Assembly: GCA_001821395.1 (NCBI GenBank)
Contig: MHLM01000012.1
Span: forward strand, 84,107 to 148,106
DNA: 64,000 bases
Direction of reading: 5' to 3'
From: Candidatus Lloydbacteria bacterium RIFCSPHIGHO2_02_FULL_50_18
GTDB taxonomy: Bacteria > Patescibacteriota > Minisyncoccia > Phycocordibacterales > UBA6899
The notes beneath the pieces are model-generated. The model ran no database searches. It was not told the DNA's origin and saw nothing but the letters and a program-made list of their open reading frames with translations. This document shows, one piece after another, positions 4,870-41,332 of the stretch. Numbering within the stretch: position 1 is the first letter of the stretch; each line of letters starts with the position of its first letter. A program made the translations under genes and the position numbers.

Positions 4870-7017
<2,148 letters not shown>

Positions 7018-7677: not shown

Positions 7678-8937
7678 ATGCCCGAAGATGAAGCCAACCA
7701 ATCCTCAGCCGCATCCGGGAGTCTAGGCGGTCTTCCCGATAGTGTAGCTCCTTCGGCCAGCGTGGAACCAAAAATAATTTCATCACCAGCACCAATGGTC
7801 TCCTCTGTTGTGTTACCCGTGGCGAATCCTATCGATCCTGCGGCGACAGAGAGTTCCGCAAATAATGAGAAGCATCTGCTACTCATTGCGCATCTATTGA
7901 ATCAGGTTCGCATCAAAAAGTCTGAGATAGGTGCTGCTCGCGATAAGATGGGTCAATTGGGGCGCGAGAGCGCGCAATTGCAAACCGAAATGCACCATAT
8001 TGAGCAAGACGTGCGCCGTGTTGAGGGAGAGTTGTACCAGGTCAAGCTTGATGCCAATAAGCAAGAGAGCACGTCAAAAGGAGAGCAGGTTGGCATGAAC
8101 GATAAAGATACGGAACTGAAAAGGCGGAGCGATGGCATCGCGAGGCTCGAGCGAGATATCGATAAATTGAAGCAAGCGATCGCCGAGCGAGAGCAACGAA
8201 TAGCTGAGATAAAAACTGAAAATAGTTCACTTGCGAAATCAAAGGAGGACCTCAGGCGAAAGATCGAGCTCGAACTTGCAGGCATCAGGGTCAAGGCCGA
8301 AAAAGCACGCGAGAAGGAAACCGCGATACGGCGCATAAAACAAGATCATGAACGGAAAAAGATGGAGATCTTTCACAAGAAGAGTGCGCCTGTTGACCGC
8401 TTACACTCAGCTCTAGATAACCAGCGGGAGGTTTCCCGACTGGAGTCCGACCTGCGGCATATTGAGCAGGAACTGTCGCGCACAGAGGGCGAGCTCCGTC
8501 TTATCGAAACGAGTGAGCACCAAGAAGAGAATACATCAAGGGTGGATCAGGGTGAGATGCGCAATAGGGATATGGTGATCTATAAAACAGGAGATGAGGT
8601 TGTTAAGCTCGGCAGAGAGATAGGGCGGCTGAACGTTGAGATTGCCGAGAAGGAAAGTGAGATAGCAAAGCTGGGCGGTGAAGGTCAGGAGTTGAGAAAG
8701 GGAAGAGAGGAGTTACGGCGACGGTATGAACTCGAGCATTTTAGTGCAAACTCAGGATTTACGCTTGCGCATGAGAAAGAGCTTCAGCTCTCTCGTTTTA
8801 AGCAGGGATTTCTTTTGAAGGAGGATAAGATCAAAAAGAACGAACATGCGCAAATACAACTACGCCATGACCTCATCTCCCTTGAGCAAGATCTGGCAAC
8901 GGTTGAAGCAGAATTGCGTCATGCTAACAGTGCATAG
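7678..8937 (+). CDS. hypothetical long coiled-coil protein (419 aa)
   Basis: ATG at 7678; the ORF track began at a TTG at 7672. Repetitive E/R/K/L-rich segments. Confidence 0.5.
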   Translation: MPEDEANQSSAASGSLGGLPDSVAPSASVEPKIISSPAPMVSSVVLPVANPIDPAATESSANNEKHLLLIAHLLNQVRIKKSEIGAARDKMGQLGRESAQLQTEMHHIEQDVRRVEGELYQVKLDANKQESTSKGEQVGMNDKDTELKRRSDGIARLERDIDKLKQAIAEREQRIAEIKTENSSLAKSKEDLRRKIELELAGIRVKAEKAREKETAIRRIKQDHERKKMEIFHKKSAPVDRLHSALDNQREVSRLESDLRHIEQELSRTEGELRLIETSEHQEENTSRVDQGEMRNRDMVIYKTGDEVVKLGREIGRLNVEIAEKESEIAKLGGEGQELRKGREELRRRYELEHFSANSGFTLAHEKELQLSRFKQGFLLKEDKIKKNEHAQIQLRHDLISLEQDLATVEAELRHANSA

Positions 8938-9049
8938 CTCTTGATGTGTAACACACTCTGCCGTCACGGGAGACGAACTCTTGCGGGGAAATCTAAGGAC
9001 AACGTCAGGTGATGATATGGTTGTGCTTCGATAGTTTATTGTTCAGTAA

Positions 9050-9146
9050 AAGGTATTAAACCCCAGGGCAAGCCCTGGGCTCGCGATGGGCTCGCAAAGC
9101 CTCGCGCGAGTCTAGGGCTGTGCCGCAGGGTATTAAACCTTTTTTA
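9050..9146. other. GC-rich structured element flanked by 11-bp direct repeats GGTATTAAACC
   Basis: ccagggcaagccctgg hairpin and ctcgcgcgag palindrome lie between two GGTATTAAACC copies (9051-9061 and 9131-9141). Confidence 0.3.
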
Positions 9147-9189
9147 GCTCTCCTCGGCACCACGGAGAGTACTTCATTTTTTTATGTTC

Positions 9190-9237
9190 AGAATATTATC
9201 TTAACCTATGCTATAGCATAGGTTAAGATAATATTCT
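9190..9237. repeat. 48-bp perfect palindrome
   Basis: agaatattatcttaacctatgcta|tagcataggttaagataatattct is an exact inverted repeat with no spacer. It is flanked by direct repeats CACCACG(G)AGAGTACTTC at 9159-9179 and 9267-9287. Confidence 0.9.
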
Positions 9238-9388
9238 TGATGTAGATATACATGTGTACACTTTTTTAATCGCACCACGAGAGTACTTCCATTCTTCTAA
9301 GGTGGAGTACCACCAAGAAGAATTGGTCGCTCGATGAAATCGCTCTACATCGGCAATAAAAAAACGAACCCGAGGGTTCGTTTTGTCT

Positions 9389-10129
9389 TCATTCAGTGTG
9401 CTGGCGCATTTTTCGCGCTTCGGCAACAAGTCGCTCGAGCGTGTCCGTTGCGATATGGTTTACCATCTCCGATTCAGTCATTGTGGTCGTATCGATGAGT
9501 TGGATCTGCGGATATTTCGGCGAAAGTTCTTCATGCATCGTCCGATAGCGGTCCACGAGTTTGCGGATCGACGCGGGGTTCGATGTCTCACCGAGCTTGT
9601 CCGAGAGTGCGATACGTTGTCCGCGGCGCATTGCTTCTTCAGGTTCACATACCACGACATAGGAGGCGATGATACGGTCTACCCAAAAACGCAGCAGGAA
9701 GAATTGCTGGATGAGTTCACGCTCTTCACCGGAGAGCAGTCCCTTGTCTTGCCAGTACATCATCCACGCGTACGGGTCAAAGATCGAACGATCAAAGATC
9801 ACCACATCGTAAGCATGACCATGTGTGTAGTCGATGACCATCTCGAGCGCATAGAGTGCGGTGCGGATGTTGTATTCCGGAGTCGTACGCGGAATATGTC
9901 CGATTACTTCGGCGCCTTCTTGCGGAATGTGCACGCGCAATCCTCTGCGTTTCAAGAATTTATAAAGTTCCTTGATGCAGGTCGTTTTTCCCGAATCCGG
10001 AGAACCGGTGAATTCGATAAGGAATGGGCGTGGCAAGAATGTACCTCCGTAACGCACGTCCGTTCGCAGGTATCCGTGCAGCATGTCCGCCATGAGTTCG
10101 AGGCGGGCAATGTCGATGGTTTTTGACAT
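9389..10129 (-). CDS. deoxynucleoside-kinase-like P-loop kinase
   Basis: Walker A FTGSPDSGKTT and an ERS-like IFDRSIFD motif. The plus-strand ORF 9383..10126 is its shadow. Confidence 0.6.
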   Translation of the reverse strand: MSKTIDIARLELMADMLHGYLRTDVRYGGTFLPRPFLIEFTGSPDSGKTTCIKELYKFLKRRGLRVHIPQEGAEVIGHIPRTTPEYNIRTALYALEMVIDYTHGHAYDVVIFDRSIFDPYAWMMYWQDKGLLSGEERELIQQFFLLRFWVDRIIASYVVVCEPEEAMRRGQRIALSDKLGETSNPASIRKLVDRYRTMHEELSPKYPQIQLIDTTTMTESEMVNHIATDTLERLVAEARKMRQHTE

Positions 10130-12548: not shown

Positions 12549-12569
12549 TGTGGAAAAAGCTGTGGATAA
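12549..12569. promoter_or_regulatory. DnaA-box-like 9-mers (TGTGGAAAA, TGTGGATAA) upstream of tuf
   Basis: Perfect reverse-complement DnaA box TGTGGATAA at 12561-12569. Confidence 0.3.
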
Positions 12570-14058: not shown

Positions 14059-14421
14059 ATGACTACAGGAACGGAACACACAAAGAAAGCCGCAAGTGCA
14101 AAGACGAAAGAGGTAGTCTCGAAGCTGCGCATCCGCGTACGCGCATATGAGTACAAGATCCTCGACGCATCGGTGCGTCAGATCATGGATACGGCATTGC
14201 GCTATGATGCAAAGCTTGTCGGGCCGATCCCTCTTCCGACTCAGATCACGAAGTACACGGTCAATCGTTCAGCGTTCATCTATAAGGATGCTCGTGAGCA
14301 GTTCGAGATGCGCGTCCACAAGCGCTTGATCGACATCATGAACCCGACACCAAAGGTGATCGAGGCGCTGACTAACCTTACACTTCCTTCAGGCGTCAAT
14401 ATCGACGTGAAGATGATGTAA
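14059..14421 (+). CDS. rpsJ: 30S ribosomal protein S10 (with N-terminal extension)
   Basis: IRVRAYEYKILDASVRQIMDTA...GPIPLPT match the S10 core. Confidence 0.9.
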   Translation: MTTGTEHTKKAASAKTKEVVSKLRIRVRAYEYKILDASVRQIMDTALRYDAKLVGPIPLPTQITKYTVNRSAFIYKDAREQFEMRVHKRLIDIMNPTPKVIEALTNLTLPSGVNIDVKMM

Positions 14422-14424
14422 TTT

Positions 14425-14523
14425 GAGCGCGAGACTTTGTTATCTTCGCTATAAACCCCGCTCACCGTATATGAATACGGCTCGGGTGGTTCGCAGCTCG
14501 ATGCCTCGTCTCGCATCTCAAAT
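14425..14523 (+). repeat. conserved structured intergenic element, copy A (after rpsJ)
   Basis: About 75% identical to 17334-17424 over about 100 nt (AACCCCGCTC...CTCGGG...GCCTCG...GCATC). The internal hairpin shows compensatory substitutions. Confidence 0.45.
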
Positions 14524-14680
14524 TTCAACATCTTCTTCAGGGTGCTGAACATTTTCTCTGCAAATTTGATCGAATGTCTTACCGTTTTCCGGAAGGAAAG
14601 CGGGGGCTTCGGTTATTACGGAGCAAAGTACTATTCTTTCTTTCGTTTATTCCCATGACATTCCTACTTAAATTACGGAC

Positions 14681-15304
14681 ATGAAATTCCTATTAGCAAC
14701 AAAACAAGAGATGACGCAATACTTCTCGGAAGACGGGAAGTGTATCGCTGCGACGCTTCTTTCCGCGGGCCCAATCACGGTGACCGAGGTGCGTACGAAA
14801 GAGCGCGACGGCTACGAAGCCGTTCAGTTCGGTTTTGGGACGCAGCTTCCAAAACGCGTCAACAAGCCACAGCTCGGCGCCCTCAAGGAGCTCGGTGTAT
14901 TCCGCTTCATGCGTGAATTCCGCCCTAAAACGGGTGGCACTGAGTCATTGAAAGCAGGCGACAAGATCACCGTTGAAGCATTTACTCCCGGAGACGACAT
15001 CGAGGTTTCGGGTATCTCAAAGGGTAAAGGTTTCCAGGGTGTCGTGAAGCGCCACGGTTTCCATGGCGGACCTCGTTCACACGGTCAGAAGCATTCTGAG
15101 CGTGAGCCGGGATCCATCGGTGCGACCGGACCTCAGCGCGTGGTACCGGGTACCCGCATGGCAGGCCGTATGGGCTCGGATCGTGTGACCATCAAGGGTC
15201 TCAAGGTTCTTGCCATTGATCCGACAAACAATCTTCTTCTCGTGTCGGGAGCGATCCCGGGTCGTCGCGGGACATTGATCGAAATTAAGGCAGCTCTTTC
15301 ATAG
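14681..15304 (+). CDS. rplC: 50S ribosomal protein L3
   Basis: Full-length L3-like sequence (KGKGFQGVVKRHGFHGGPRSHGQ). Confidence 0.93.
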   Translation: MKFLLATKQEMTQYFSEDGKCIAATLLSAGPITVTEVRTKERDGYEAVQFGFGTQLPKRVNKPQLGALKELGVFRFMREFRPKTGGTESLKAGDKITVEAFTPGDDIEVSGISKGKGFQGVVKRHGFHGGPRSHGQKHSEREPGSIGATGPQRVVPGTRMAGRMGSDRVTIKGLKVLAIDPTNNLLLVSGAIPGRRGTLIEIKAALS

Positions 15305-15308
15305 GCTT

Positions 15309-16022
15309 ATGACAACAGAAACAACGACAAAGAAAGTTATTGCAAAGAAGGCCATTGATCTCGATGCAACTGTCTACACAATGGACGGAAAGAAGTCGGG
15401 AAACATCAAGCTTCCTGAAACAGTATTCGCAGAAAAATGGAACGCAGACCTCGTACATCAGGTCGTTATCGGTATGCAGGCAAATGCCCGTCAGCCGATT
15501 GCGCACACGAAGGATCGTTCCGAAGTTCGCGGTGGAGGCAAGAAGCCATGGGCCCAGAAGGGTACCGGTCGTGCCCGTCACGGTTCGTCTCGCTCACCGA
15601 TCTGGCGCCACGGTGGTGTCACTCATGGTCCGCGTAATGACCGCGATTTTTCACAGAAGATCAACAAGAAGATGCGCGTAAAGGCATTGTTCGTCGTACT
15701 CTCAAAGAAATTTGCAGACGGACAGCTCCTCTTCATGCATGATCTTTCAATGAAAGAGCCAAAGACGAAAGACGCTCGCGCAATGCTTACGACGTGGGGC
15801 ACTATCGACGGTTTTACACCGCTTGCAACGCGCCGAAAGAACGCACTCTATGTGGTGCTCTCAAAGGCGGATGCATCGGTAAAGAAATCATTCCAGAACA
15901 TGGGCAATGTATTAGTCGGAACAATGGGAACCGTGAATCCGGTCGACCTTCTCTCGTACCGCTATGTCCTCTTTGCAAATCCCGAAGAGTGCATGAAGAT
16001 AATGGAGGCTAAACTGAAATAA
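15309..16022 (+). CDS. rplD: 50S ribosomal protein L4
   Basis: GGGKKPWAQKGTGRARHGS matches the L4 signature. Confidence 0.93.
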   Translation: MTTETTTKKVIAKKAIDLDATVYTMDGKKSGNIKLPETVFAEKWNADLVHQVVIGMQANARQPIAHTKDRSEVRGGGKKPWAQKGTGRARHGSSRSPIWRHGGVTHGPRNDRDFSQKINKKMRVKALFVVLSKKFADGQLLFMHDLSMKEPKTKDARAMLTTWGTIDGFTPLATRRKNALYVVLSKADASVKKSFQNMGNVLVGTMGTVNPVDLLSYRYVLFANPEECMKIMEAKLK

Positions 16023-16023
16023 T

Positions 16024-16470
16024 ATGGCAACACTCTTCAATAAAAAGTCTCCCGTCAAAAAGACGGTAGCAACAACCGATGTTGCAAAGGCGAAAGCCGC
16101 AAAAGTGGAGAAGGCAGACAAGAAGGACGAGGTCGCAGCACTCAAGGTCAAGGAGGCCGGAAGTGTGCGCGCAAAGAAGGGGGGACTCGAGCTCAACATG
16201 ATACTCGTTCGTCCGCATATCACCGAGAAAGCAACCGATCTATCCGAGCACAACGTCTACGCATTTGAGATCGCACGTATGGCGAACAAGGCGCAGGTCC
16301 GTCAGGCGATCGAGAAGTTCTACAAAGTGAAACCCGTCAAGATCGCGATCATCATGGGTATCGCAAAGTACATGAAGAATCCTCGTACCGGTCGAATGCA
16401 GACAAAAAAGATTGCAATTAAAAAGGCGCTCGTCTACTTGAAAAAAGGAGACAAGATTGAGTTTGTATAA
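16024..16470 (+). CDS. rplW: 50S ribosomal protein L23 (K/A-rich N-terminal extension)
   Basis: L23 core ILVRPHITEKAT...YAFEIARMANKAQVRQAIEKFY. Confidence 0.9.
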   Translation: MATLFNKKSPVKKTVATTDVAKAKAAKVEKADKKDEVAALKVKEAGSVRAKKGGLELNMILVRPHITEKATDLSEHNVYAFEIARMANKAQVRQAIEKFYKVKPVKIAIIMGIAKYMKNPRTGRMQTKKIAIKKALVYLKKGDKIEFV

Positions 16471-16481
16471 ATCTTATCAAC

Positions 16482-17327
16482 ATGAAAACATTCAAACCAT
16501 TAACGCCTAGTCTGCGTAACACCGTCCTCACTCCCTATAAGGAGCTCCTCTCCGGCGATTCGAAAGCAATCCCGAAGAGTCTTACGAAAGGAAAGCGAAA
16601 GACCGGTGGCCGCAATAACCAGGGTCGCATCACCATGCGGCACATTGGCGGAGGCAACAAGAACCTGAAGCGCGATGTCGACTTCAAATACAAGAAGCGT
16701 GACGTCTTGGGTCGCGTCGAAGCGGTCCAGTACGATCCCTTGCGCACCGCATTCATCGCCCTCGTTGTCTACAAGGACGGAGAGCGCGTGTATGTCGTCG
16801 CACCGAAGGGGATGAAGAAGGGAGACACGATGATCACGAGTGAGAAGGCCGCCCCTACGGTAGGGAACCGACTTCCGCTCAAGAAGATCGCCGTCGGTAC
16901 CTTCGTGTACAACGTTGAGGTCCAGCCCGATGGAGGAGCAAAGCTTGCTCGCTCTGCCGGAAACTTCATCGAAGTCATCGCCAACGATATGGGCTACGCA
17001 TTCTTGAAGATGCCGTCATCCGAGGTCCGCAAGGTCCCCGAGAATTGTTGGGCATCGATCGGAGGAGCTTCGAACGATCAGCACAAGCTCCGCAAGGAGG
17101 GAAAGGCCGGTCGTAACCGCTGGAAGGGTATCCGACCACACGTGCGCGGTTCAGCCATGAACGCCGTCGACCATCCTCATGGAGGTGGAGAAGGCCGCAT
17201 GGGTCGCGGTATGCGACGCCAGAAGTCACGCACCGGTAAGTTCATCGGCAAGGGACAGAAGACCAGATCGCCGAAGAAGTATTCGAACGTGTTCATTGTC
17301 TCTCGCCGAAAGGTGGGCAAGAAGTAA
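16482..17327 (+). CDS. rplB: 50S ribosomal protein L2
   Basis: GGGNKNLKR...RSAGN...HPHGGGEGR are L2 motifs. Confidence 0.95.
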   Translation: MKTFKPLTPSLRNTVLTPYKELLSGDSKAIPKSLTKGKRKTGGRNNQGRITMRHIGGGNKNLKRDVDFKYKKRDVLGRVEAVQYDPLRTAFIALVVYKDGERVYVVAPKGMKKGDTMITSEKAAPTVGNRLPLKKIAVGTFVYNVEVQPDGGAKLARSAGNFIEVIANDMGYAFLKMPSSEVRKVPENCWASIGGASNDQHKLRKEGKAGRNRWKGIRPHVRGSAMNAVDHPHGGGEGRMGRGMRRQKSRTGKFIGKGQKTRSPKKYSNVFIVSRRKVGKK

Positions 17328-24951: not shown

Positions 24952-25034
24952 TTTTAAGTGGTGCGTTTGCGGCTACGATAATATTCCACAGATAATCCAC
25001 AGAGTTATCAACAGCAAAATGTAATAATTATGGC

Positions 25035-25069
25035 AAAAAATAACCCCAACCCTTCGGTCGGGGTTGGGG
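25035..25069 (-). terminator. terminator for minus-strand gene 25074..25313
   Basis: ccccaaccc-ttcggtc-gggttgggg hairpin with a plus-strand A-run, which reads as a T-run on the minus strand. Confidence 0.5.
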
Positions 25070-25073
25070 TAGG

Positions 25074-25313
25074 TCAGTCGACCTCTGTGATGGTAAACTT
25101 TTCGCTGCAGGAGTAGAGGAAGCCCTCCTCGAGTCCCCAACAGAAAAAGAACATCCCGTCGCCCTCCTTGGGGGGCACCCCATCCTTATTCGAAACGGTC
25201 GTTACTCCACCTTCGCGAGTGACTTTGACGTCAACGTAGGACCTGGTGGAACTTAAATCTTCCATAAATTCTGCGTGCTCATCTTCGGTGAGTATCGCTG
25301 TGGCTATTTTCAT
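25074..25313 (-). CDS. hypothetical small protein (79 aa)
   Basis: AAGGAG RBS 6 nt before the ATG. A terminator lies downstream. Confidence 0.5.
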   Translation of the reverse strand: MKIATAILTEDEHAEFMEDLSSTRSYVDVKVTREGGVTTVSNKDGVPPKEGDGMFFFCWGLEEGFLYSCSEKFTITEVD

Positions 25314-25476
25314 TGTTGCTCCTTCGGTTTGGTTTTTGAGTCTGACATGACATTAGCACGAAAAATATTTATGTCAATAATTTGATATTCCTATATTTTA
25401 TAACATATTTTGACTTAATTCGAACGCCACACCTAGGAAGTGAGGGAAATAGGTCTTTTGGGAGACTTCACGGGCT

Positions 25477-25585
25477 TGAAATACGCACCTGGGAGCGAGG
25501 TATTGCTTTTTGAGGGGCTACGGACCGCGGCGGCGGGAGTTTGAGGAAAAAGTCAGCAGACTTTTATCCGTGCCCTCAAAAAGCA
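25477..25585 (+). repeat. hairpin-forming repeat element, copy 1 (family TTGCTTTTTGAGRG...CYCTCAAAAAGCAA)
   Basis: It is the reverse complement of 29479-29636 at both ends, each about 45 nt at over 90% identity. It contains an internal long-range inverted repeat. Confidence 0.6.
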
Positions 25586-25750
25586 ATGCCGAGCGTATAC
25601 ATTGACTTCTTTGGGCTGTTTAAGTAGTATCTAGCACAAGGTATTTCAAATAGTTTCACTCTACGCCGTGGGAGGATCAGGGGCGTTGGGAAATCTATAT
25701 CGAAAAATCGCCAAATCGCCCAAAAGGCTTAGAAAAACTTTTATAAACAT

Positions 25751-26095
25751 ATGACAAGATCACTAAAAAAGGGACCATACGTGTACGAGAAATTGCTCAA
25801 GAAGATCGAGGGCAAGAAGCCGGATGTTGCCGGTGTAATTAAGACCTGGGCGCGTGCGTCGCAGATCTCACCTGAGATGGTGGGGCATACCTTCGGTGTG
25901 CACAATGGCAAGGACTTCATTGAGGTAAAGGTCAGCGAGGAGATGGTTGGACATCGTCTCGGTGAATTCTCAGGAACCCGCAAATTCTATCGTCACGGTG
26001 GAAAGATGCAAAAGGACCTTGAGGCTAAACAGAAGGAAGCCGAGATCTCTGCAGCAAAGGCCGCAAAGGGAGCTGATGCCGCTAAGAAAAAATAA
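25751..26095 (+). CDS. rpsS: 30S ribosomal protein S19 (K/A-rich C-terminal tail)
   Basis: KKGPYV...[25 protein letters not shown] match the S19 core. Confidence 0.95.
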
Positions 26096-26104
26096 TTCAT
26101 TACT

Positions 26105-26560
26105 ATGGAAATCACCGCTAAACTCTCTCAGTATCGTCAGGCTCCCCGCAAGGTCCGGCTTGTTGCTACCCTCTTAAAGGGTATGACTGTCGAAAACGCG
26201 CTTGTTGAACTTTCTCATCGCACAAAACGTGTTGCCCCGATCTTTCACAAGCTCGTCTTGTCTGCCGTTGCAAATGCAAAGATGCAAGGACTCGACGAGA
26301 AGACACTCATCGTTAAAGGCATCCGTGTCGACAAAGGACCGGTGCTGAAACGTTCCCGCCCTCGCGCACAAGGTCGCGCATTCCCGATTCATAAGCATAC
26401 GAGTCATATCGTAGTAACGCTTACCGATGGAGCAGTCGCCGACACAAAGACAACAACAACCGCAACCGCCGACACAAAGACCGTAAAGGTAGCTGTTGCA
26501 AAAAAGGTCGTTGCAAAGAAGTCCGTTACCAAGAAAAAAGTAGCCGCCACGGCGAAGTAA
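26105..26560 (+). CDS. rplV: 50S ribosomal protein L22 (C-terminal T/A/K-rich extension)
   Basis: L22 core AKLSQYRQAPRKVRLVATLLKGMTVENAL. Confidence 0.93.
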   Translation: MEITAKLSQYRQAPRKVRLVATLLKGMTVENALVELSHRTKRVAPIFHKLVLSAVANAKMQGLDEKTLIVKGIRVDKGPVLKRSRPRAQGRAFPIHKHTSHIVVTLTDGAVADTKTTTTATADTKTVKVAVAKKVVAKKSVTKKKVAATAK

Positions 26561-26570
26561 TTTTTATCCT

Positions 26571-27275
26571 ATGTCACATCATGTACATCCATATGCACAT
26601 CGGTTAGGAATCCTCCGTGATTGGAAGTCGCGTTGGTTCGCCGATCGTGGTCAGTATCAAGAATATTTAAAAGGTGACGTTCTTTTGCGTGAGTTTCTTG
26701 AGAAGAAGCTTCGCGGCTCACACGTCTCCGAAATTGTCATGGAGCGCAATGACAAAACTTGGAAGATCCTCATCAAGACTGCACGACCGGGACTCATTAT
26801 CGGTCGCAGCGGAGAGGGCGCAGTAAAATTGAAGAATGACGTACTTTCGAAACTCGCCCGCTTAAAGATGAAGCATCCGAAAGACATCAAGATCGAGATA
26901 GAGGAAGTGCGCAGTCCTGAGTCGAATGCGGCGATAGTCGGTCAGATGACTGCCGAGGGACTTGAGAAGCGTATGCCATTCAAGCGTGTGATCAAGCAGT
27001 TGCTTGAGAAGGTGATGGCGAATCGCGACGTTAAGGGAGCACGCATCGAACTTTCCGGACGTTTGGGTGGTGCAGATATGTCTCGCCGCGAGTTTGTGAA
27101 GGCAGGCAATATTCCACTGCAGACCATTCGTGCCGATGTTGATTTTGCACGAGAGAAGGCTTTCCTTCCTTACGGCATCATCGGTATTCAGGTGTGGATA
27201 TACAAGGGTGAAGTGTTTGCCGAGAAGGCAAAGGCTGTGGTCGCACCAAAGGCACAGGGGGCTCATCACTCATAA
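26571..27275 (+). CDS. rpsC: 30S ribosomal protein S3
   Basis: KH and S3-C domains (IIGRSGEGAVKLK, ELSGRLGGADMSRREFVKAGNIPLQTIRADVDF). Confidence 0.95.
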   Translation: MSHHVHPYAHRLGILRDWKSRWFADRGQYQEYLKGDVLLREFLEKKLRGSHVSEIVMERNDKTWKILIKTARPGLIIGRSGEGAVKLKNDVLSKLARLKMKHPKDIKIEIEEVRSPESNAAIVGQMTAEGLEKRMPFKRVIKQLLEKVMANRDVKGARIELSGRLGGADMSRREFVKAGNIPLQTIRADVDFAREKAFLPYGIIGIQVWIYKGEVFAEKAKAVVAPKAQGAHHS

Positions 27276-27288
27276 TCAGAACAGGCTT

Positions 27289-27714
27289 ATGTTATTTCCA
27301 AAAAAAGTAAAACATCGTAAATGGCAGTCGGATCGCTGGAACCGCAAGAAGAATCGCATCGAGTCGCGCGGAACGACCCTCGCCTATGGTGCATATGGAT
27401 TGAAGGCGGAGACCGAGTCACGCATCACTTCAAATCAGATCGAAGCTGCACGCCGCGTATTATCGCGCAACGTCGGAAAAACAGGACGCGTATGGATCCG
27501 CGTATTCCCGGATAGACCATATACACAGAAAGGAGCCGAAGTTCCGATGGGTAAGGGTAAGGGAGATCCTCAGGGGTTTGTCGCAGAAATACTTCCGGGT
27601 CGCATCATCTTTGAGATCGACGGAGTGACGTTTGTGCAGGCAAAGGAAGCAATTAGAAAAGCCGGGTCGAAACTTGCAGTCCTCTCACGTATGGTTACTC
27701 GCGATATTGTCTAA
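27289..27714 (+). CDS. rplP: 50S ribosomal protein L16
   Basis: MLFPKKVKHRKWQSDR...; the ORF-track start at 27130 is an upstream extension through rpsC. Confidence 0.93.
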   Translation: MLFPKKVKHRKWQSDRWNRKKNRIESRGTTLAYGAYGLKAETESRITSNQIEAARRVLSRNVGKTGRVWIRVFPDRPYTQKGAEVPMGKGKGDPQGFVAEILPGRIIFEIDGVTFVQAKEAIRKAGSKLAVLSRMVTRDIV

Positions 27715-27724
27715 TCCCATCTAT

Positions 27725-27916
27725 ATGAAAATCACAGAAATACGAAAGATGTCGGACAAAGAAATCGAGAAGGCACTCGTTGAACAGCGCGCAGAGGTCA
27801 AGCAATTCCGTTTTGATATTACGGGAAGCAAGGCAAAAGATCTGAAAGCAGGTGCAAATGCAAAGAAGGCCGTTGCGCGTCTCTTGACCGAACTTTCATC
27901 TCGGAACGAGAATTAA
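27725..27916 (+). CDS. rpmC: 50S ribosomal protein L29
   Basis: MKITEIRKMSDKEIEKALVEQRAEVKQFRF. Confidence 0.9.
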   Translation: MKITEIRKMSDKEIEKALVEQRAEVKQFRFDITGSKAKDLKAGANAKKAVARLLTELSSRNEN

Positions 27917-27918
27917 TC

Positions 27919-28227
27919 ATGACGACTATGGAAACCAAAACAATACAAACGAAAAAGCAGTCGATGGTCGGGGTCGTTGTGTCCGACAAGATGGACAAAA
28001 CACGAGTCGTCCTGGTTACTCGCTACGAGCAGCATCCAAAGTATAAGAAGTACGTGAAGCATCACAAACGCTACAAGGTGCACGATGCAAAAAATGAGTT
28101 CAAGGTCGGGGACAAAGTGCGTATCGAAACATGTGCGCCACTTTCAAAGCATAAGGCCTTCACCGTGGTCGAAAAGGTCGGAACTCAGGACGTTGAACAG
28201 TACATGAAGACGCGCGGAGCAGCATAA
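27919..28227 (+). CDS. rpsQ: 30S ribosomal protein S17
   Basis: VGVVVSDKMDKTRVVLVTRYEQHPKYKKYVK...FKVGDKVRIETCAPLSKHKAFTVVE. Confidence 0.93.
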   Translation: MTTMETKTIQTKKQSMVGVVVSDKMDKTRVVLVTRYEQHPKYKKYVKHHKRYKVHDAKNEFKVGDKVRIETCAPLSKHKAFTVVEKVGTQDVEQYMKTRGAA

Positions 28228-28239
28228 TCAGACAAATAT

Positions 28240-28608
28240 ATGATACAACCACGCACAATAGTAAAGATCGCTGATAATTCCGGAGGAAAGGTCGGACGTA
28301 TCTTTAAGGTTCTCGGCGGTTCGAAGAAGCGCTATGCGGGTCTCGGTGATCTCGTCGTGCTTTCTGTACAGACCGCAGAACCACGTAAGGGAGTGAAGAA
28401 GGGCGAGGTCTGCCGCGCGGTCGTCGTGCGCGTAGCAAATGCTTTTCGCCGACATGACGGATCGTACATCCGTTTTGACGAGAATGCGGTCGTGCTGATC
28501 GATGCAAAGAATGAGCCTCGTGCCGGTCGCGTTTTTGGCCCGATCCCTCGTGAGATCTCAGAAAAGGGATTCAAAAAGATTATTTCTTTGGCCCCTGAGG
28601 TCGTTTAA
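28240..28608 (+). CDS. rplN: 50S ribosomal protein L14
   Basis: MIQPRTIVKIADNSGGK... Confidence 0.95.
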   Translation: MIQPRTIVKIADNSGGKVGRIFKVLGGSKKRYAGLGDLVVLSVQTAEPRKGVKKGEVCRAVVVRVANAFRRHDGSYIRFDENAVVLIDAKNEPRAGRVFGPIPREISEKGFKKIISLAPEVV

Positions 28609-28621
28609 TTTCAATCGGCTT

Positions 28622-28855
28622 ATGCATATAAAAAAAGGAGACGAAGTAGTGATCCTCTCGGGAGATGATAAGGGGAAAAAGGGTAAGGTCGCTCATGTGA
28701 TGCCGAAGCTCGGCACCGCGGTCGTCGAGGGCCTCAACATGCGAAAGAAGCATCAGCATGCTCGTCAGGATGGAAAGAAGGGGCAAGTCATCGAAATAGC
28801 CATGCCGCTCCGTGTGTCCAAGTTGGCATTGGCAGACAAGCCAAAGAAGAAATAA
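28622..28855 (+). CDS. rplX: 50S ribosomal protein L24
   Basis: MHIKKGDEVVILSGDDKGKKGKV... Confidence 0.9.
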   Translation: MHIKKGDEVVILSGDDKGKKGKVAHVMPKLGTAVVEGLNMRKKHQHARQDGKKGQVIEIAMPLRVSKLALADKPKKK

Positions 28856-28865
28856 TTGAACAACC

Positions 28866-29477
28866 ATGAACGTCCCAACAATAAAAGAAAAGATAAAGTC
28901 CGCATATCCAAAGCTGAAAGAGAAGCATGGATATAAGAACGTCATGCAGGCACCTAAGGTGGAGAAGGTCATCATTTCCGTGGGCACCGGTAAGATGTCC
29001 CGCAATGACAAGAAGAAGAATGAGTTCGTCGCGAGCCGGCTTGGTATGATCACCGGACAGAAGGCGTCTGCACGAAAGGCAAAACAATCGATCGCTTCGT
29101 TCAAGCTTCGTGAGGGTGATGTCATCGGACAGATGGTCACGATGCGCGGGAGCAAAATGATGGGTTTCCTCGACAAGCTTGTGAACGTGGCTATCCCGCG
29201 TACGCGCGACTTCCGAGGATTCCGTGCCGCCTCGATCGATGCAATGGGGAATTTCACCCTTGGTATCAAGGAGCACACGATCTTCCCTGAGACTGCAGAT
29301 GAAGACCTGAAAGACGTCTTCAGCCTCGCACTCACTGTCGTTCTTTCAACGAGGAACAAGGAGGAGTCCATTGATTTCTTGGAGCACCTTGGTTTCCCGT
29401 TCCGCGAAACTGCGAACGAGGGAAAGAAAAAGAAAGAGAAGAAGGTTGACGCCCCAAGTAAGAAGTGGAAGAAGTAA
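28866..29477 (+). CDS. rplE: 50S ribosomal protein L5 (K-rich C-terminal tail)
   Basis: L5 core (NVMQAPKVEKVIISVGTGK ... FRGFRAASIDAMGNFTLGIKEHTIFPE). Confidence 0.95.
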   Translation: MNVPTIKEKIKSAYPKLKEKHGYKNVMQAPKVEKVIISVGTGKMSRNDKKKNEFVASRLGMITGQKASARKAKQSIASFKLREGDVIGQMVTMRGSKMMGFLDKLVNVAIPRTRDFRGFRAASIDAMGNFTLGIKEHTIFPETADEDLKDVFSLALTVVLSTRNKEESIDFLEHLGFPFRETANEGKKKKEKKVDAPSKKWKK

Positions 29478-29478
29478 T

Positions 29479-29636
29479 TACCGCTCAGCATTGCTTTTTG
29501 AGAGCACGGATAAAAGTCTGCTGACTTTTTCCACCGCAAGGGTACTTCCAATTTCATACTCCCTATGGTCGTTGAAATTTAGGTCGCTCACACCTCGCAC
29601 TGCCCGGCTCCGTAGCCTCTCAAAAAGCAATACTTC
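29479..29636 (-). repeat. hairpin-forming repeat element, copy 2 (inverted relative to copy 1; about 70-nt extra internal segment)
   Basis: It starts immediately after the rplE stop. Both ends are reverse-complementary to 25477-25585. An internal long-range stem GCATTGCTTTTTGAGAG / CTCTCAAAAAGCAATAC is present. Confidence 0.6.
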
Positions 29637-29719
29637 GCTCCCAGGTTCGTTTTTCGAGCGGGGATCCGAAAAGACTTATTGTCTTCGCCCAAGAGGATCG
29701 GAGTTCGCGTTTGAAATAC

Positions 29720-29750
29720 AAAACCCGCTCATTTGAGCGGGTTTTGTTCT
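29720..29750 (+). terminator. rho-independent terminator
   Basis: cccgctc-atttg-agcggg plus TTTTGTT. Confidence 0.6.
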
Positions 29751-29833
29751 TTTGAGAATAAGCTCAATGAGGCCCTTTACTTTTTTGAAAAAAAGCAGAA
29801 TCTGAGAAGAGTTGTTTTTATTGAGAGGTAGAG

Positions 29834-30202
29834 ATGCAGATCCGCTTTCGGGTTCGCGAACTCGCTTTGGCAATTCGGGAATTTCTCGTCGGTGTCTTTG
29901 TCTTCTTCCGGCGGTCAGTGAAAAGAAGGGATGAAGTACGATATTGCTTCATGTGCCAAGAGTACGGCCATCCGCTTACTAAAGTATCGTTCATGATCCG
30001 CACAGAAGCGCGGAGGGGGGCAAAGAAGGAGGCGCCATTCTCGGTCATGGAACTCCACGTGTGCAGTATGCATCATCCTGACAAGGACGTCGTCGGGGCA
30101 GACCTGTCCGAGGAAACACGATCATTTCTTCGAAACAATGATGCTGCCGCAGCGTGTGTCTACTATTACCATGATCCCGATCATGTTTTCCGCCTCGGAT
30201 AA
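29834..30202 (+). CDS. hypothetical Cys/His-rich protein (122 aa)
   Basis: GAGGT RBS. Its 3' end plus terminator are duplicated at 31107-31179. Confidence 0.35.
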   Translation: MQIRFRVRELALAIREFLVGVFVFFRRSVKRRDEVRYCFMCQEYGHPLTKVSFMIRTEARRGAKKEAPFSVMELHVCSMHHPDKDVVGADLSEETRSFLRNNDAAAACVYYYHDPDHVFRLG

Positions 30203-37214: not shown

Positions 37215-37423
37215 CTGCTATTTTGCAGAAAAATTGAGATATTTTATTCTGTGTCGTCACAAATTGACAGTCGTTGAGCCATTTGTTAGTATCCAAGCAC
37301 GTTTCTTTTGATCCGCCTTTCTCCTTTTTGACCCCAAATCTTGGGAGCAAGAAGAAAACAGGCGTGATATTGAAAGGGCGTATTATGTCCGACCGCGTCG
37401 AGGTTGGTATTTATCTATTTATT

Positions 37424-37606
37424 ATGGCAAAAAAATCAACAATTGCACGACAACTCACCCCGAAATTTCCGGGTCGAGCAGTCAATCGCTGTTTTAAGTG
37501 CGGGCGAAAACGCGGCTATATGAGAGCTTTCGATCTCTGCCGTATCTGTTTTCGTGAATTAGCAAACGAGGGAAAGGTCCCCGGAATAAAGAAATCATCA
37601 TGGTAA
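37424..37606 (+). CDS. rpsN: 30S ribosomal protein S14 type Z (zinc-ribbon form)
   Basis: [10 protein letters not shown]...[38 protein letters not shown] includes a CxxC...CxxC ribbon. Confidence 0.9.
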
Positions 37607-38007
37607 TCACCGACCCAATCGCAGACATGTTCATGCGCATCAGGAATGGCGGTGCCGCCAAGAAGACGGTGGTGTATATCCCATTTTCTGATCTCAAGAT
37701 GCGTATCGCAAATACGCTTATGAAGGAAGGATATTTAAGTTCAGTGTCAAAGAAGATACTCAAAGGCCGTATCACGGAGCGCATGATCGCCGTTGGTATC
37801 ATTTATAGTGAGGACAAGCTTCCCCTCGTTCGAGGAATGGAGCGTGTCTCTCGTCCGTCGTGTCGTTCATATATTGGTGCAAAGGAACTGCGTCCGGTCA
37901 ACCAGGGTCACGGCATCATGCTTCTTTCGACTCCAAAGGGTATTCTCACGGGAGAAGAAGCCCGCAAGGAGCACGTGGGAGGTGAAATTATTGGCAAAAT
38001 CTGGTAA
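37600..38007 (+). CDS. rpsH: 30S ribosomal protein S8
   Basis: [17 protein letters not shown]... Confidence 0.95.
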
Positions 38008-38018
38008 TTCCCATCACT

Positions 38019-38552
38019 ATGTCCCGTTTAGCTAAAAAACCAATAATCATTCCCGAGAAGACGACCGTCACACTTCTTGACCACGTTGTCACTGTTAAGG
38101 GTCCGCTTGGAACACTTTCACGCGCATTTCCAAAGGTCATCGACGTAGCCATCACCGAAGGTCAGATCAATGTTTCACTCAATAATCCTAGCCGAGATTT
38201 CAAGGCACTTCTTGGTACCGCCTGCTCGCATATCAAGAATATGATCGCAGGGGTCAATAAGGTCTATGAAAAGAAGCTCATCATCGAAGGTATCGGCTAT
38301 AAGGCAGACGCGAAGGGCCAGTTACTCACGATGGCGCTCGGCTTTTCACATCCCGTGAAGCTTGAGGCACCGGAGGGGGTCACCGTTGTCACTGAGAAGG
38401 GTTCCATGACGATCTCCGGTATCAGTAAGGAGGCGGTCGGACAATTCGCTGCGACTGTACGCTCTTGGAAGGTCCCTGAGCCGTATAAGGGAAAAGGCAT
38501 TCGTTACTCCGATGAGGTTATTCGCCGTAAACAGGGTAAGAAAACCGCATAA
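38019..38552 (+). CDS. rplF: 50S ribosomal protein L6
   Basis: MSRLAKKPIIIPEKTTVTL... Confidence 0.95.
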   Translation: MSRLAKKPIIIPEKTTVTLLDHVVTVKGPLGTLSRAFPKVIDVAITEGQINVSLNNPSRDFKALLGTACSHIKNMIAGVNKVYEKKLIIEGIGYKADAKGQLLTMALGFSHPVKLEAPEGVTVVTEKGSMTISGISKEAVGQFAATVRSWKVPEPYKGKGIRYSDEVIRRKQGKKTA

Positions 38553-38553
38553 T

Positions 38554-38904
38554 ATGAAAAAGACAGAACTCAAAAACTATCATCGCATGCGACGACACAA
38601 TCGCATCCGTGCAAAAGTGTCGGGTACCGCAGCGATCCCTCGTTTGGCGATATTCCGATCTGCACGACACATCACCGCACAATTGATCGACGACGAGAAG
38701 TCATTCACGATCGCCGCTTCAGGTGACGTGAAGAGCGTGAAGGGCACGAAGCTCGAGCACGCAACTGCCGTCGGTACGGACATCGCAGCAAAAGCAAAGG
38801 AGAAAAAGATCACCAAGGTCGTATTTGATCGCGGTGGATTCCTCTACGCAGGTCGCGTGAAGGCACTCGCCATCGCTGCACGGGCTGCTGGTCTCATATT
38901 TTAA
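38554..38904 (+). CDS. rplR: 50S ribosomal protein L18
   Basis: MKKTELKNYHRMRRHNRIRAKVSGTAAIPRLAIFRS... Confidence 0.93.
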   Translation: MKKTELKNYHRMRRHNRIRAKVSGTAAIPRLAIFRSARHITAQLIDDEKSFTIAASGDVKSVKGTKLEHATAVGTDIAAKAKEKKITKVVFDRGGFLYAGRVKALAIAARAAGLIF

Positions 38905-38918
38905 TCTTGACTATTACT

Positions 38919-39590
38919 ATGGAAGAAAAAACACAACAAACAGCTCCAGTAGCTCCGGCCAAGGTCGCAACACAAGGCGGCGTACCGGTGCGTGCGTATA
39001 CCCCTCGCCCTGCAGGCGGTGCTCCCCGATCTTCGGGCGGAGCACGCGTAGGAACGGGACGTGGCGGTGCAAAACCGCCTGAGCGCCGAGGTGGCGGTCG
39101 CGGTGGACGCACTGATCGTCCGAAACCAGAATATGACCAGAAGTCAATCGATGTGCGACGCGTTGCACGTGTCGTTGCAGGAGGTCGCCGCTTCTCTTTT
39201 TCGGTCGCAATGATCATCGGCGATAGGAAGGGCAAGGTCGGAGTCGGTACCGGGAAGGCCGGTGATATCTCGATGGCCATGGACAAGGCGGCAAAGGATG
39301 CCAAGAAGCACATGATCACCGTGAAGCTCACGAAGACGAACTCGATCCCGCATGAAGTGTTCGCGAAGGCGTCGAGTGCGGTCGTAGAGATCCTTCCCGC
39401 ACCATCGCGCGGACTGGTCGCAGGATCAGCGATGCGTAACTTGCTTGAACTCGCAGGTATCACGGATGTTTCGGCAAAGATTCGCAGCGGTTCAAAGAAC
39501 AAGCTTAATATGGCACGCGCTGGGATCAAGGCGCTTTCCACTCTTCGTCCTCGTGTACGAAAGGAGGCCGCAGTTACTCAAGAGAAATAA
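38919..39590 (+). CDS. rpsE: 30S ribosomal protein S5 (G/R-rich N-terminal extension)
   Basis: S5 dsRBD and C-terminal domain (VRRVARVVAGGRRFSFSVAMIIGD...GTGKAGDISMAMDKA). rplO follows directly, with no L30 gene. Confidence 0.93.
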   Translation: MEEKTQQTAPVAPAKVATQGGVPVRAYTPRPAGGAPRSSGGARVGTGRGGAKPPERRGGGRGGRTDRPKPEYDQKSIDVRRVARVVAGGRRFSFSVAMIIGDRKGKVGVGTGKAGDISMAMDKAAKDAKKHMITVKLTKTNSIPHEVFAKASSAVVEILPAPSRGLVAGSAMRNLLELAGITDVSAKIRSGSKNKLNMARAGIKALSTLRPRVRKEAAVTQEK

Positions 39591-39601
39591 GCCACAGACA
39601 T

Positions 39602-40033
39602 ATGCAACTCAATCAACTAAAACGCGTTCACAGGAACAAGGATGACAAGCGTGTCGCACGCGGTGGAAAACGCGGAAAGACTGCGGGCCGCGGAACGAAG
39701 GGTCAGAAGGCTCGCGCCGGACATCGTATGCGTCCTGAAATGCGTGACATCATCAAGAAGTTCCCGAAGAATCGCGGATACAAGAATCAGTCTTTCGAGG
39801 TGAAACCACAGCCGGTCAATCTTCTCGTCATCGAGACCTCGTTTGCCGCAGGCGAAGCAGTCAATCCGGAGACACTGCTCGCAAAGAAGCTTATCAACAG
39901 GGTGGGCGGAAGGATGCCAAAGGTCAAGATCCTCGCAATGGGCAAGCTCACAAAGAAAGTGATCGTTACCGGTTGTGCGTTCTCGAAGACCGCACAGGAG
40001 CACATTGAGGCAGCGGGAGGGACAATTCAATAA
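39602..40033 (+). CDS. rplO: 50S ribosomal protein L15
   Basis: MQLNQLKRVHRNKDDKRVARGGKRGKTAGRGTKGQKAR... Confidence 0.93.
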   Translation: MQLNQLKRVHRNKDDKRVARGGKRGKTAGRGTKGQKARAGHRMRPEMRDIIKKFPKNRGYKNQSFEVKPQPVNLLVIETSFAAGEAVNPETLLAKKLINRVGGRMPKVKILAMGKLTKKVIVTGCAFSKTAQEHIEAAGGTIQ

Positions 40034-40036
40034 TCG

Positions 40037-41332
40037 TTGGGCAAGAGCCCCACATTAACCATGAACAATTTTTTCTACAAACTACGCTTGATGATCTCTG
40101 ATCCGTCACTACGAGGGCGACTCCTCTTTGTTGTCGGAGCACTGGCCGTCTTCCGTATCGCCGCTTCGATCCCAATTCCGGGAGTCGATCACGCTGCACT
40201 GCTCCAGTTTTTCCAGAACAATCAGTTCCTGGGACTCTTGAATGTGTTTTCGGGATCGGGACTCTCAACACTCTCCATTGTCATGCTTGGTGTCGGACCG
40301 TATATCACGGGTTCCATCATCATGCAGCTCCTTACGATGATGTCGCCAAAACTGAAGGCGATGTATCACGAGGAAGGGGAGATCGGTCGCAAGAAATTCA
40401 CTCAGTATTCACGCTTACTTACGGTGCCACTCGCAATGCTTCAGGGGTATGGATTGCTTGTATTGCTGGCGCGCCAGGGGGTGCTCGGAGATCTGAATCC
40501 ATTCCAGTTGTTCGTAAACGTACTCATTGTTACGGCAGGTTCCCTTTTCCTGATGTGGATCGGTGAGCTAATCTCTGAGTTCGGTATCGGCAATGGCGTC
40601 TCGATCCTCATCTTCGCAGGTATCGTCTCGCGTATTCCTACGGTTGCCTCTCAGACCTTGGTCTCCTACAACCCTCAGGATATACCGCTCTATCTTGCCT
40701 TCACCATCGCGGCAGTGGTTATCATCGCCGGGGTCATCGTCATGACCGAAGCGGAGCGACCGGTGCCGATCACGTATGCGAAGCGCGTGCGTGGCGGAAA
40801 GATGTACGGAGGAGTCTCTACTTACTTGCCGCTTCGTGTGAACCAGGCAGGTGTGATCCCGATCATTTTTGCTCTTTCGATCTTGCTTTTTCCTCAGCTT
40901 ATCGGAGGATTTCTCTCTGGGCTCGCTAATCCGACGGCGCAGATGATCGGTGAATTCATGAAGACGAACTTTTCGCAGGGATGGATCTATTCGATCTGCT
41001 ACTTTGCGCTTGTCTTCCTCTTCACGTTCTTCTATACCGCAGTGACGTTCGATCCGGAAGCGGTTGCAACCAACCTTCAAAAGTCGGGTGCGTTCATTCC
41101 GGGAGTTCGACCGGGTGCAGCGACGGCAGAGCATATTGCGAAGATCCTCACTCGTACGACATTTGCAGGAGCATTATTCCTCGCAGGGGTCGCAGTATTG
41201 CCGCTTATCATGCAGTCGTTCACGGGAAACCAATCGCTTGCGATCGGTGGTACCGCACTCTTGATCGTTGTGTCGGTTGTGCTTGATCTTATCAAGAAAA
41301 TGGACGCACAACTCTCGATGCGCGAGTATTAA
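40037..41332 (+). CDS. secY: preprotein translocase subunit SecY
   Basis: Ten TM segments. Conserved LNVFSGSGLSTLSIVMLGVGPYITGSIIMQLL and GISILIFAGIV blocks. Confidence 0.95.
   Translation: MGKSPTLTMNNFFYKLRLMISDPSLRGRLLFVVGALAVFRIAASIPIPGVDHAALLQFFQNNQFLGLLNVFSGSGLSTLSIVMLGVGPYITGSIIMQLLTMMSPKLKAMYHEEGEIGRKKFTQYSRLLTVPLAMLQGYGLLVLLARQGVLGDLNPFQLFVNVLIVTAGSLFLMWIGELISEFGIGNGVSILIFAGIVSRIPTVASQTLVSYNPQDIPLYLAFTIAAVVIIAGVIVMTEAERPVPITYAKRVRGGKMYGGVSTYLPLRVNQAGVIPIIFALSILLFPQLIGGFLSGLANPTAQMIGEFMKTNFSQGWIYSICYFALVFLFTFFYTAVTFDPEAVATNLQKSGAFIPGVRPGAATAEHIAKILTRTTFAGALFLAGVAVLPLIMQSFTGNQSLAIGGTALLIVVSVVLDLIKKMDAQLSMREY

Follow-up and report, generated by a model that had tools for sequence, protein, structure and literature searches.

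Two inverted elements flanking an rpsS-rplE ribosomal-protein block belong to a dispersed, modular intergenic repeat family of Candidatus Lloydbacteria

What are the two hairpin-forming elements that stand in inverted orientation on either side of a nine-gene ribosomal-protein block, rpsS-rplE, in Candidatus Lloydbacteria bacterium RIFCSPHIGHO2_02_FULL_50_18? The block lies within a stretch of 64,000 nt (contig MHLM01000012.1, positions 84,107 to 148,106), which we call the window and whose own coordinates are used throughout. The initial annotation, made from the letters of the stretch, took the pair for a hairpin-forming repeat resembling miniature inverted-repeat transposable elements (MITEs) or REP sequences, and proposed that it might mediate inversion of the block or mark the boundaries of two flanking insertions. 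We find that the elements, here copies A and B, are two independent members of a dispersed, modular intergenic repeat family of Ca. Lloydbacteria (Parcubacteria, Candidate Phyla Radiation, CPR). Structured intergenic repeats are of a known kind; the family itself, its three-way junction with invariant bases, its subfamilies defined by their termini and its position at stop codons are new. On balance we favour the view that these are non-autonomous modular repeats of the ERIC/Correia/BOX type, specific to this lineage and mobile now or formerly.

The inverted hairpin elements are present where they had been placed, and repeat searches and folds correct their coordinates only slightly. Within 25000-30200 the repeat search recovers two inverted pairs, 25545-25595 with 29482-29532 (51 nt, 96 % identity) and 25474-25539 with 29594-29659 (66 nt, 83 % identity), and each copy contains an 18-nt inverted repeat of its own at 94 % (25499-25516 with 25573-25590 in A, 29487-29504 with 29617-29634 in B). 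For the core sequence TTGCTTTTTGAGRG the window has four occurrences where 0.07 would be expected, and none of 100 shuffles reaches four; A and B are the only copies of the core family in the 64 kb. The structured core of copy A spans 104 nt (25492..25595, plus strand) and folds at -58.4 kcal/mol (z -5.65 against shuffles), that of copy B 160 nt (29482..29641, minus strand) at -70.0 kcal/mol (z -5.14). A is the best match of covariance model R1 at 126.3 bits and is further delimited by pair counts; B matches at 85.3 bits and is further delimited by its geometry. Direct alignment of the two stems reveals compensatory differences (GAGGG/CCCTC vs GAGAG/CTCTC).

Copy B is the three-way junction of A with a small module nested between helices P2 and P3. 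This is the extra internal segment noticed at the outset, which does exist, but is ~56 nt long rather than 70. B also adjoins the rplE stop codon (TAA, 29475..29477, plus strand, closing the open reading frame (ORF) 28866-29477 with Pfam domains Ribosomal_L5 and L5_C), although its structured core, and with it the 3' end of the element, lies 4 nt and not 2 nt from the stop. The full repeated unit, at ~25437-25595 for A and ~29482-29700 for B, reaches ~55-60 nt past the earlier limits on one side. Strain variants of the window population carry identical elements. Two short-read Logan contigs, L005 and L006, stop inside the 51-nt block common to A and B (ends 1066-1068), as a repeat would lead one to expect; it thus fragments assemblies of the organism.

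Could the resemblance of A and B be a coincidence of a single locus? A pattern matching both stem arms, scanned over 185,579 representative genomes, yielded paired matches only in metagenome-assembled genomes (MAGs) of Lloydbacteria/Parcubacteria: copies are present in GW2011_GWA2_47_7 (four contigs), RIFCSPLOWO2_01_FULL_50_20, GFS_1902, GFS_12411 and GL114, and a decayed one in UBA6023. Unrelated phyla contributed about a dozen single chance matches. Unbinned metagenome contigs from groundwater supplied 45 further stretches by the same pattern, and model R1, built from eight copies and run over the collected contigs, recovered ~35 distinct copies with strong covariation. GW2011_GWA2_47_7 alone has at least five. 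The copies are star-like in their relationships, at 85-95 % identity to the consensus, with no grouping by locus or by genome. The suggestion of a multi-copy MITE- or REP-like hairpin repeat is borne out by these numbers, and a single-locus coincidence is contradicted by the many copies and their conserved structure.

The family matches nothing that we could find described. Rfam 15 gives no match at gathering threshold anywhere in the window; at E <= 10 within 25300-29800 there is none over either core, only terminator-like noise at 29631-29800. The lack of any gathering-score match in the 64 kb also means that the window contains no tRNA and no known ribosomal-protein leader, despite the presence of most of the ribosomal-protein cluster. 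Viral contigs have no match to the element, and a full-text search of a literature collection returned no account of such an element in CPR/Patescibacteria. The motif GAGCGASS, considered as a genome-wide tag, is not enriched (15 observed vs 10 expected).

The core is ~105 nt long (range 101-172 nt) and consists of a ~26-bp stem, P1, closing a three-way junction with two hairpins. The initial picture of a large stem-loop was correct in that each element folds, but the fold branches into a three-way junction, whose junction and loop bases are invariant, and is not a plain stem-loop. Taking 25492 as position 1, P1 pairs 4-5 with 102-103 and 8-25 with 82-99 across a 2x2 GA/AG internal loop; after a 2-nt bulge at 26-27, the pairs 28-30/79-81 close the junction. 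The first joining strand, J1/2, reads GGA, and P2 consists of four base pairs capped by a GRCG loop (CCGC-GGCG-GCGG in copy A). J2/3 is GAGUYUUGA in the family and GAGTTTGA in copy A, and the hairpin P3 has 10 bp, a bulged A and AGCA as its loop. The termini, GCGAGG...CCNGAGCG, are nearly constant, and the divergent members found at some sites have the same ones.

How strongly is this structure maintained? In an alignment of 29 sequences 95.3 % of the cells are standard pairs, as against 39-52 % when the partners are slid by 1-3 columns. Double-sided changes are found in 25 of the 37 pairs (92 cells), and the covariation score is 0.334 compared with 0.146 in shuffles and 0.05-0.08 with slid partners; not one of 500 column shuffles matches the observed values on any measure. 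One position of P3 displays all of G-C, A-U, U-A and C-G. Several copies have an entirely different P3 stem under the same AGCA loop, and a switch from G-C to C-G in five copies indicates that P3 includes the GGA/UCC pairs, at the cost of part of P1. An alternative P3 pairing proposed by RNAalifold, GAGTC with GACTT, was rejected, the stem swaps and the G-C/C-G switch favouring AAAAGTC/GACTTTT. This pattern of substitutions indicates that the fold is under selection.

The unpaired bases are nearly constant too. A7 is present in all 29 sequences, and the other bases of the GA/AG loop nearly so (G6 in 27, G100 in 25, A101 in 26); the GAG of J2/3 is kept in 28-29 copies and the AGCA loop in 27-29. 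One explanation for these features is a dedicated multi-copy functional RNA, made from the copy-A-sense strand and acting in cis or in trans as a protein-binding or catalytic module, the positions at stop codons and at the rpsS promoter then reflecting function and not insertion history. We regard it as possible, if somewhat doubtful. In its favour, all helices covary around invariant unpaired bases, and the architecture is kept across subfamilies with little common stem sequence. The conserved GA/AG loop is predicted to form tandem sheared G-A pairs on the copy-A-sense strand only, leaving C-U mismatches on the other, and orthologous copies are kept upstream of rpsS in five species (the window, L074, L008, L027 and L056) and downstream of rpiB in four. 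The copy-A-sense strand also folds slightly better than its complement, and G-U cells outnumber A-C cells by 49 to 21, but this excess falls to 29 vs 18 once two dominant positions are set aside; the evidence for a strand preference is suggestive, not decisive. Several observations are difficult to reconcile with a dedicated RNA. There is no conserved promoter 5' of the rpsS-upstream copies and no terminator at the 3' end, and on the strand in question copy B sits directly behind a terminator hairpin, no promoter-like sequence being evident between them. Copies decay or get swapped at orthologous sites, and insertions of an unrelated module are tolerated at different places in J2/3. The conserved ATGTCAAT is not a promoter of an independent RNA: it is the TTGACA of the promoter of a divergent 79-aa ORF.

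The nested module of copy B (29531..29589, minus strand), recognised by its recurrence in relatives, is one such insertion. It comprises GAGCGACC, a hairpin AAATTTCA..TGAAATT and GGAAGTACCCTTGCGGTG, and exemplifies a small unit, the S-module, whose plan of ~56 nt is GCGACC, a hairpin and GGAAGTAC. The hairpin covaries between copies (AATTTCA/TGAAATT vs ATTTTTA/TAAAAAT). Copy B, L020, L009 and L074 have the S-module behind the second GAG of J2/3, L052 and L039 behind the first; at both positions it starts right after the GAG without any duplication. In L049 it is reversed and placed elsewhere. It has evidently been inserted into the core at least twice independently. A different insert, a 26-nt G+C-rich hairpin, occupies the P1 bulge in L050 (3689-3819) and L051 (2095-2225), which makes that bulge another place where insertion is permitted. 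Only clear copies of the S-module are used here; a loose regular expression gave mostly noise.

The S-module also occurs on its own. The initial annotation had likened B's extra segment to repeats at 9159 and 9267; comparison with the nested copy establishes the latter as a standalone S-module at 9283..9330 on the minus strand (GCGACC-AATTCTTCT...AGAAGAAT-GGAAGTAC), while the former is a partial match only. A second standalone copy is found in L020 (1485-1530). The window copy is located in a hairpin-dense intergenic region of 440 nt (8940-9380), which includes a G+C-rich hairpin at ~9060-9085, a partial S-module at ~9150-9178, a near-perfect long palindrome at ~9179-9250 (TTCAGAATATTATCTTAACCTATGC / GCATAGGTTAAGATAATATTCTTGA) and a terminator-like hairpin at ~9357-9385. 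Rfam returns generic hairpin noise over 8850-9450 and nothing at E <= 10 as a family match.

What do the two sites look like in related genomes? The ribosomal-protein cluster of the window is split in three: rpsJ-rplB at 14059-17327, rpsS-rplE at 25751-29477 and a third block at 37274-41332. The third block starts with an rpsN-like ORF at 37274, annotated as rpsS14 in the strain-variant contig L002, contains S8 at 37600-38007 (Pfam) and ends with the ORF 40037-41332, which is secY by position, as called in relatives. Each gap contains ~8 kb of unrelated genes, the first those for Fic, Bax1-I, hypothetical proteins and queA, the second those for an M50 peptidase, a 936-aa beta-helix protein and a VKOR-like protein. 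We compared the neighbourhood of rpsS-rplE in nine Lloydbacteria relatives: L008, which is GW2011_GWA2_47_7, L027 and L074-L080, the latter seven being further additions with L5 proteins 92 % to 69 % identical. In all nine the cluster is interrupted before rpsS and after rplE, with differing inserted genes. Common break points with different inserts imply that the breaks are ancestral and that the gaps are hot spots of gene turnover. A causal role of the elements in the two insertions, whose boundaries they had been suggested to mark, is not supported: five relatives show the breaks with no element at either site. The elements occupy new intergenic space and did not create it.

Occupancy of the two sites varies among these genomes. 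Upstream of rpsS, the type I core is present in the window and in its closer relatives L074, L008, L027 and L056 and absent from L075-L080; L075 has a member of another subfamily there, and L076-L080 have none. Downstream of rplE, the window has a type I core, L074 and L075 a type II element and L008 another terminus-defined member, and there is no element in L027, nor in L076-L080, whose gaps at this site measure only 78-261 nt. Three-way junctions with a 21-bp P1, the GA/AG loop and the closing G-C recur in the L074 and L075 elements at this site (z -8.65 and -6.78), which also have the same ends (TAA-NNNN-CGCTC ... CCTCGCT); their stem sequences are almost wholly unlike type I. A site can hold different subfamilies alike only in termini and architecture. 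A site downstream of adk is occupied in L043, and the window has only a 99-nt gap there.

Beyond its core, A carries a 5' module at 25437..25491 (plus strand; GTGAGGGAAATAGGTCTTTTGGGAGAC...) and B one at 29642..29700 (minus strand; …GGGCGAAGACAATAAGTCTTTTCGGATCC…), each delimited by alignment with the other copy and the latter also by homology to the L008 element. In L075 the same site as A's holds a different family member, a 222-nt element at 6445-6666, and A's module is the homologue of its P1 5' arm, GCGAGGGAAATGGGTC; B's module has its homologue in the 5' arm of L008 781-974, the member found there downstream of rplE. The idea that the 5' module is a second structured domain was rejected, as it folds no better than shuffles (z near 0). 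The 5' modules of A and B are best read as remnants of older members, the type I core having arrived into or beside them. L075 also has, upstream of rpsS, two copies of another palindromic repeat, ATATGTCAAGACTTAGTCTTGACAT (6336-6360 and 6547-6571), one of them inside the 222-nt member.

These comparisons bear on the notion that A and B work as a pair, inverting rpsS-rplE or forming a long-range duplex between the 5' and 3' ends of its mRNA. The two copies, inverted and complementary over 51 nt and 66 nt, do bracket exactly the nine-gene block. Gene order is nonetheless collinear in all contigs that carry this L5 protein (14 read, six shown) and in all nine relatives, so that the inversion put forward initially is not observed. 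The flanks of the block are taken by members of different subfamilies in L074, L075 and L008, with little complementarity between them; the complementarity is accordingly not conserved. A conserved rpsS promoter downstream of A would probably leave copy A outside the mRNA, and inverting essential ribosomal-protein genes away from their promoter would be deleterious. We hold a functional inverted pair to be extremely improbable. Under the favoured reading of a modular repeat, the inverted arrangement exists because the 3' end of the element faces a gene boundary, and reflects no functional pairing.

Copies adjoin gene boundaries. Past the 3' end of 20 of the 36 copies, a convergent ORF has its stop codon (TAA or TAG) at a distance of 0-7 nt, most commonly with a 4-nt spacer of variable sequence. 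These ORFs range from 64 to ~600 codons, and the 3' neighbours identified by Pfam include rplE, efp, gap, rpiB, ftsK, ftsX and a gene for an Ig-domain protein. On the 5' side Pfam identifies ruvC, adk, clpP, a DUF192 gene and a beta-lactamase-like gene, and there are divergent genes as well; these assignments dispose of a transposase or TnpB encoded upstream on the same strand. A further 5' neighbour of 638 aa resembles FtsH by sequence only and was not scanned against Pfam. In the ORFs scanned, those flanking the copies and those of the window, there is no transposase or recombinase domain, whole genomes lying outside this search. Two other ideas about placement were rejected: a terminator uniformly following the element, which only ~1/3 of the copies have, and a leader of a duplicated downstream gene, since proteins and DNA past the element are unrelated. 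Read in the opposite orientation, each copy precedes a small ORF by ~130 nt, one of 79 aa for A and one of 122 aa for B.

That the copies lie directly past stop codons and fold on the strand complementary to the upstream gene recalls sites of single-strand recombination such as integron attC or the ends of HUH/Y1-transposase elements. The termini would then be recombinase boxes, the bulge and internal loop would serve as strand markers, a variable apex would be tolerated, and swapping at the termini would explain the different subfamilies at one site. Several regularities agree with this: termini are kept while interiors differ and still fold, extrahelical bases and the internal loop are conserved, both window sites show in relatives the pattern of kept ends and a replaced middle, and the S-module inserts after GAG without duplication. 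Against it, the neighbours are core housekeeping genes at conserved positions and not cassettes, the boxes RYYYAAC/GTTRRRY are absent, no integrase or Y1 transposase is found in the scanned flanks, and there is no fixed flanking tetranucleotide, the 4-nt spacer being variable. We consider recombination sites of this sort very unlikely.

With attC the family shares, besides its position directly past a stop codon, structure conserved over sequence, conserved basal boxes and a variable apex, but the R''/R' boxes RYYYAAC ... GTTRRRY are replaced at the stem base by GCGAGGTATTGC ... GCAATGCCGAGCG, and the copies beside rplE, efp, gap, rpiB, ftsK and ftsX form no arrays next to an integrase. With IS200/IS605-derived elements (PATE), which insert 3' of a fixed tetra- or pentanucleotide without duplication and have separate hairpins at their left and right ends, the comparison is mixed: no duplication is found here and modules start after GAG, the 4-nt spacer on the other side is variable, there is one large branched hairpin rather than two end hairpins, and no TnpA/TnpB is seen. 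REP/BIME-RAYT sequences are also extragenic palindromes, often located just past stop codons, and strand-specific recognition of a single-strand hairpin, as a possible route of mobilisation, is a further parallel. A REP, however, is a simple 20-40-nt hairpin with a GTAG or CGTC head, as opposed to a branched core of >= 100 nt; the head motif here is GAGCGAGG, and no RAYT gene is seen in the scanned flanks of any copy.

The closest parallels are with ERIC, Correia and BOX elements. ERIC sequences, as generally known, are imperfect palindromes of ~100-130 nt, non-coding, intergenic near or within transcription units and in either orientation, with size variants arising by discrete internal insertions and copies at orthologous sites in related species. 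They differ in that the apex of the Lloydbacteria family is a three-way junction with invariant junction and loop bases, several subfamilies are set apart by their termini, and copies lie strikingly close (0-7 nt) to stop codons, in CPR bacteria with very small genomes. The Correia elements of Neisseria (NEMIS/CREE) are MITE-like, ~100-155 nt long, with long terminal inverted repeats and with long and short forms differing by a ~50-nt internal segment; we count as a likeness also their gene-adjacent, co-transcribed copies with hairpins affecting mRNA processing. What sets the two apart is a TA target duplication together with IHF and promoter motifs in the Correia elements, and a branched apex with no duplication found in the family described here. 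The BOX elements of Streptococcus pneumoniae resemble this family in their separable modules, variable content between copies and stable predicted RNA folds, but are linear (boxA-boxB-boxC) where the S-module is nested in the core, and there is no sequence similarity. Of the hallmarks of MITEs, the family displays small size and non-coding, multi-copy character (101-172 nt; two in the window), terminal inverted repeats in the form of the ~26-nt P1 arms, and polymorphism of presence and absence at both window sites among the nine relatives; it lacks a target-site duplication, and a transposase with the same ends was absent from the scanned ORFs.

What could be the mechanism behind the spread and persistence of such an element? 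We infer both a route of mobility and an effect on mRNA 3' ends. The element, folded as a single strand, would spread or be replaced by way of its conserved termini; once placed it would join the neighbouring transcripts. Copy B offers the clearest instance. An intrinsic-terminator-like hairpin with a 13-bp stem and a T-run, found by repeat search and by reading of the sequence, stands downstream of it at 29718..29747 on the plus strand, which places B, on that strand, inside the rplE 3' untranslated region (UTR), and equivalent hairpins stand behind the rplE-downstream elements of L074, L075 and L008. Most plausibly, B would act there, ahead of the terminator, as a stable hairpin that blocks 3' exonucleases or read-through.

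A number of facts weigh against a formerly or currently mobile repeat with such a role. No target-site duplication is found, the flanks differing between copies; the GAGCG motifs, tried as one, were rejected because they covary as pairs (pair 4-103 is GC in 20 copies, GU in 5, AU in 2 and UA in 1) and behave as parts of the stem. No transposase or recombinase gene lies beside any examined copy, and no autonomous parent was seen there. Nearly invariant unpaired bases combined with covarying stems are more typical of a functional RNA, or of a single strand recognised by a protein, than of a hairpin that is purely selfish, and orthologous copies are kept in species that share only 83-92 % identity in their L5 proteins. 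In most copies the better-folding strand is antisense to the neighbouring gene, and at copy B a terminator hairpin on that same strand stands just ahead of it, with no promoter-like sequence evident on reading in between. Finally, the scarcity of terminator-like hairpins, found after only about a third of the copies, leaves a uniform 3'-UTR role unsupported.

In view of these facts we also entertain a bolder alternative, though we think it rather unlikely: the family might represent a new class of functional structured nucleic acid confined to a CPR lineage, either a multi-copy RNA module of gene ends that binds a protein or cleaves itself, or the site of an undescribed single-strand recombination that swaps terminus-defined cassettes right at the stop codons of core genes. 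For the RNA version, the telling features may be the three-way junction, the tandem G-A pairs and the invariant GGA, GAGUCUUGA and AGCA. The implications differ accordingly. CPR/Patescibacteria genomes are highly streamlined, a persistent intergenic family of ~105-220 nt is unexpected baggage in them, and almost nothing is known of non-coding RNA or mobile DNA in this lineage. If the element is MITE-like only, it is a strain marker, a cause of assembly breaks and an example of modular nested repeats in the CPR. If the junction is functional, it would represent a new motif of RNA or single-strand DNA, and phylogenetic profiling could be used to look for its partner protein.

The surroundings of the copies supply a few further observations. 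The neighbours of copy A are the divergent 79-aa ORF on one side and, starting 6 nt past the element on the other, a promoter-like rpsS site, TTGACT-N17-TAGTAT (25602..25630, plus strand, identified by reading); the site is kept in the same position in L008, L027, L056 and L075. The copies upstream of rpsS in the window, L074, L008, L027 and L056 are each followed by this promoter-like sequence at a distance of a few nucleotides. Upstream of rpsS in five species, and of rpsN in L027 (5066-5095), there is a closely similar sequence of this kind (TTGACTTATTTTG...ATTTGAGTAGTAT), which suggests that the separated ribosomal-protein blocks share a promoter type.

Among copies with no convergent gene, four or five independent ones (L073, L030, L043, L047 at 4595-4697, and L029) have the motif TTATCCACAG, in L029 TTGTCCACAG, 4 nt past the element, with unrelated flanks beyond it. 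The motif contains the DnaA-box consensus TTATCCACA and is not enriched across the window. Two clusters of DnaA-box-like sequences occur on the minus strand of the window, one at 55544-55620, with TTATCCACA, TTCTCCACA and TTACCCACA within 80 nt, and one at 12549-12569, with TTATCCACA and TTTTCCACA within 21 nt; both apparently fall in gaps between long ORFs.

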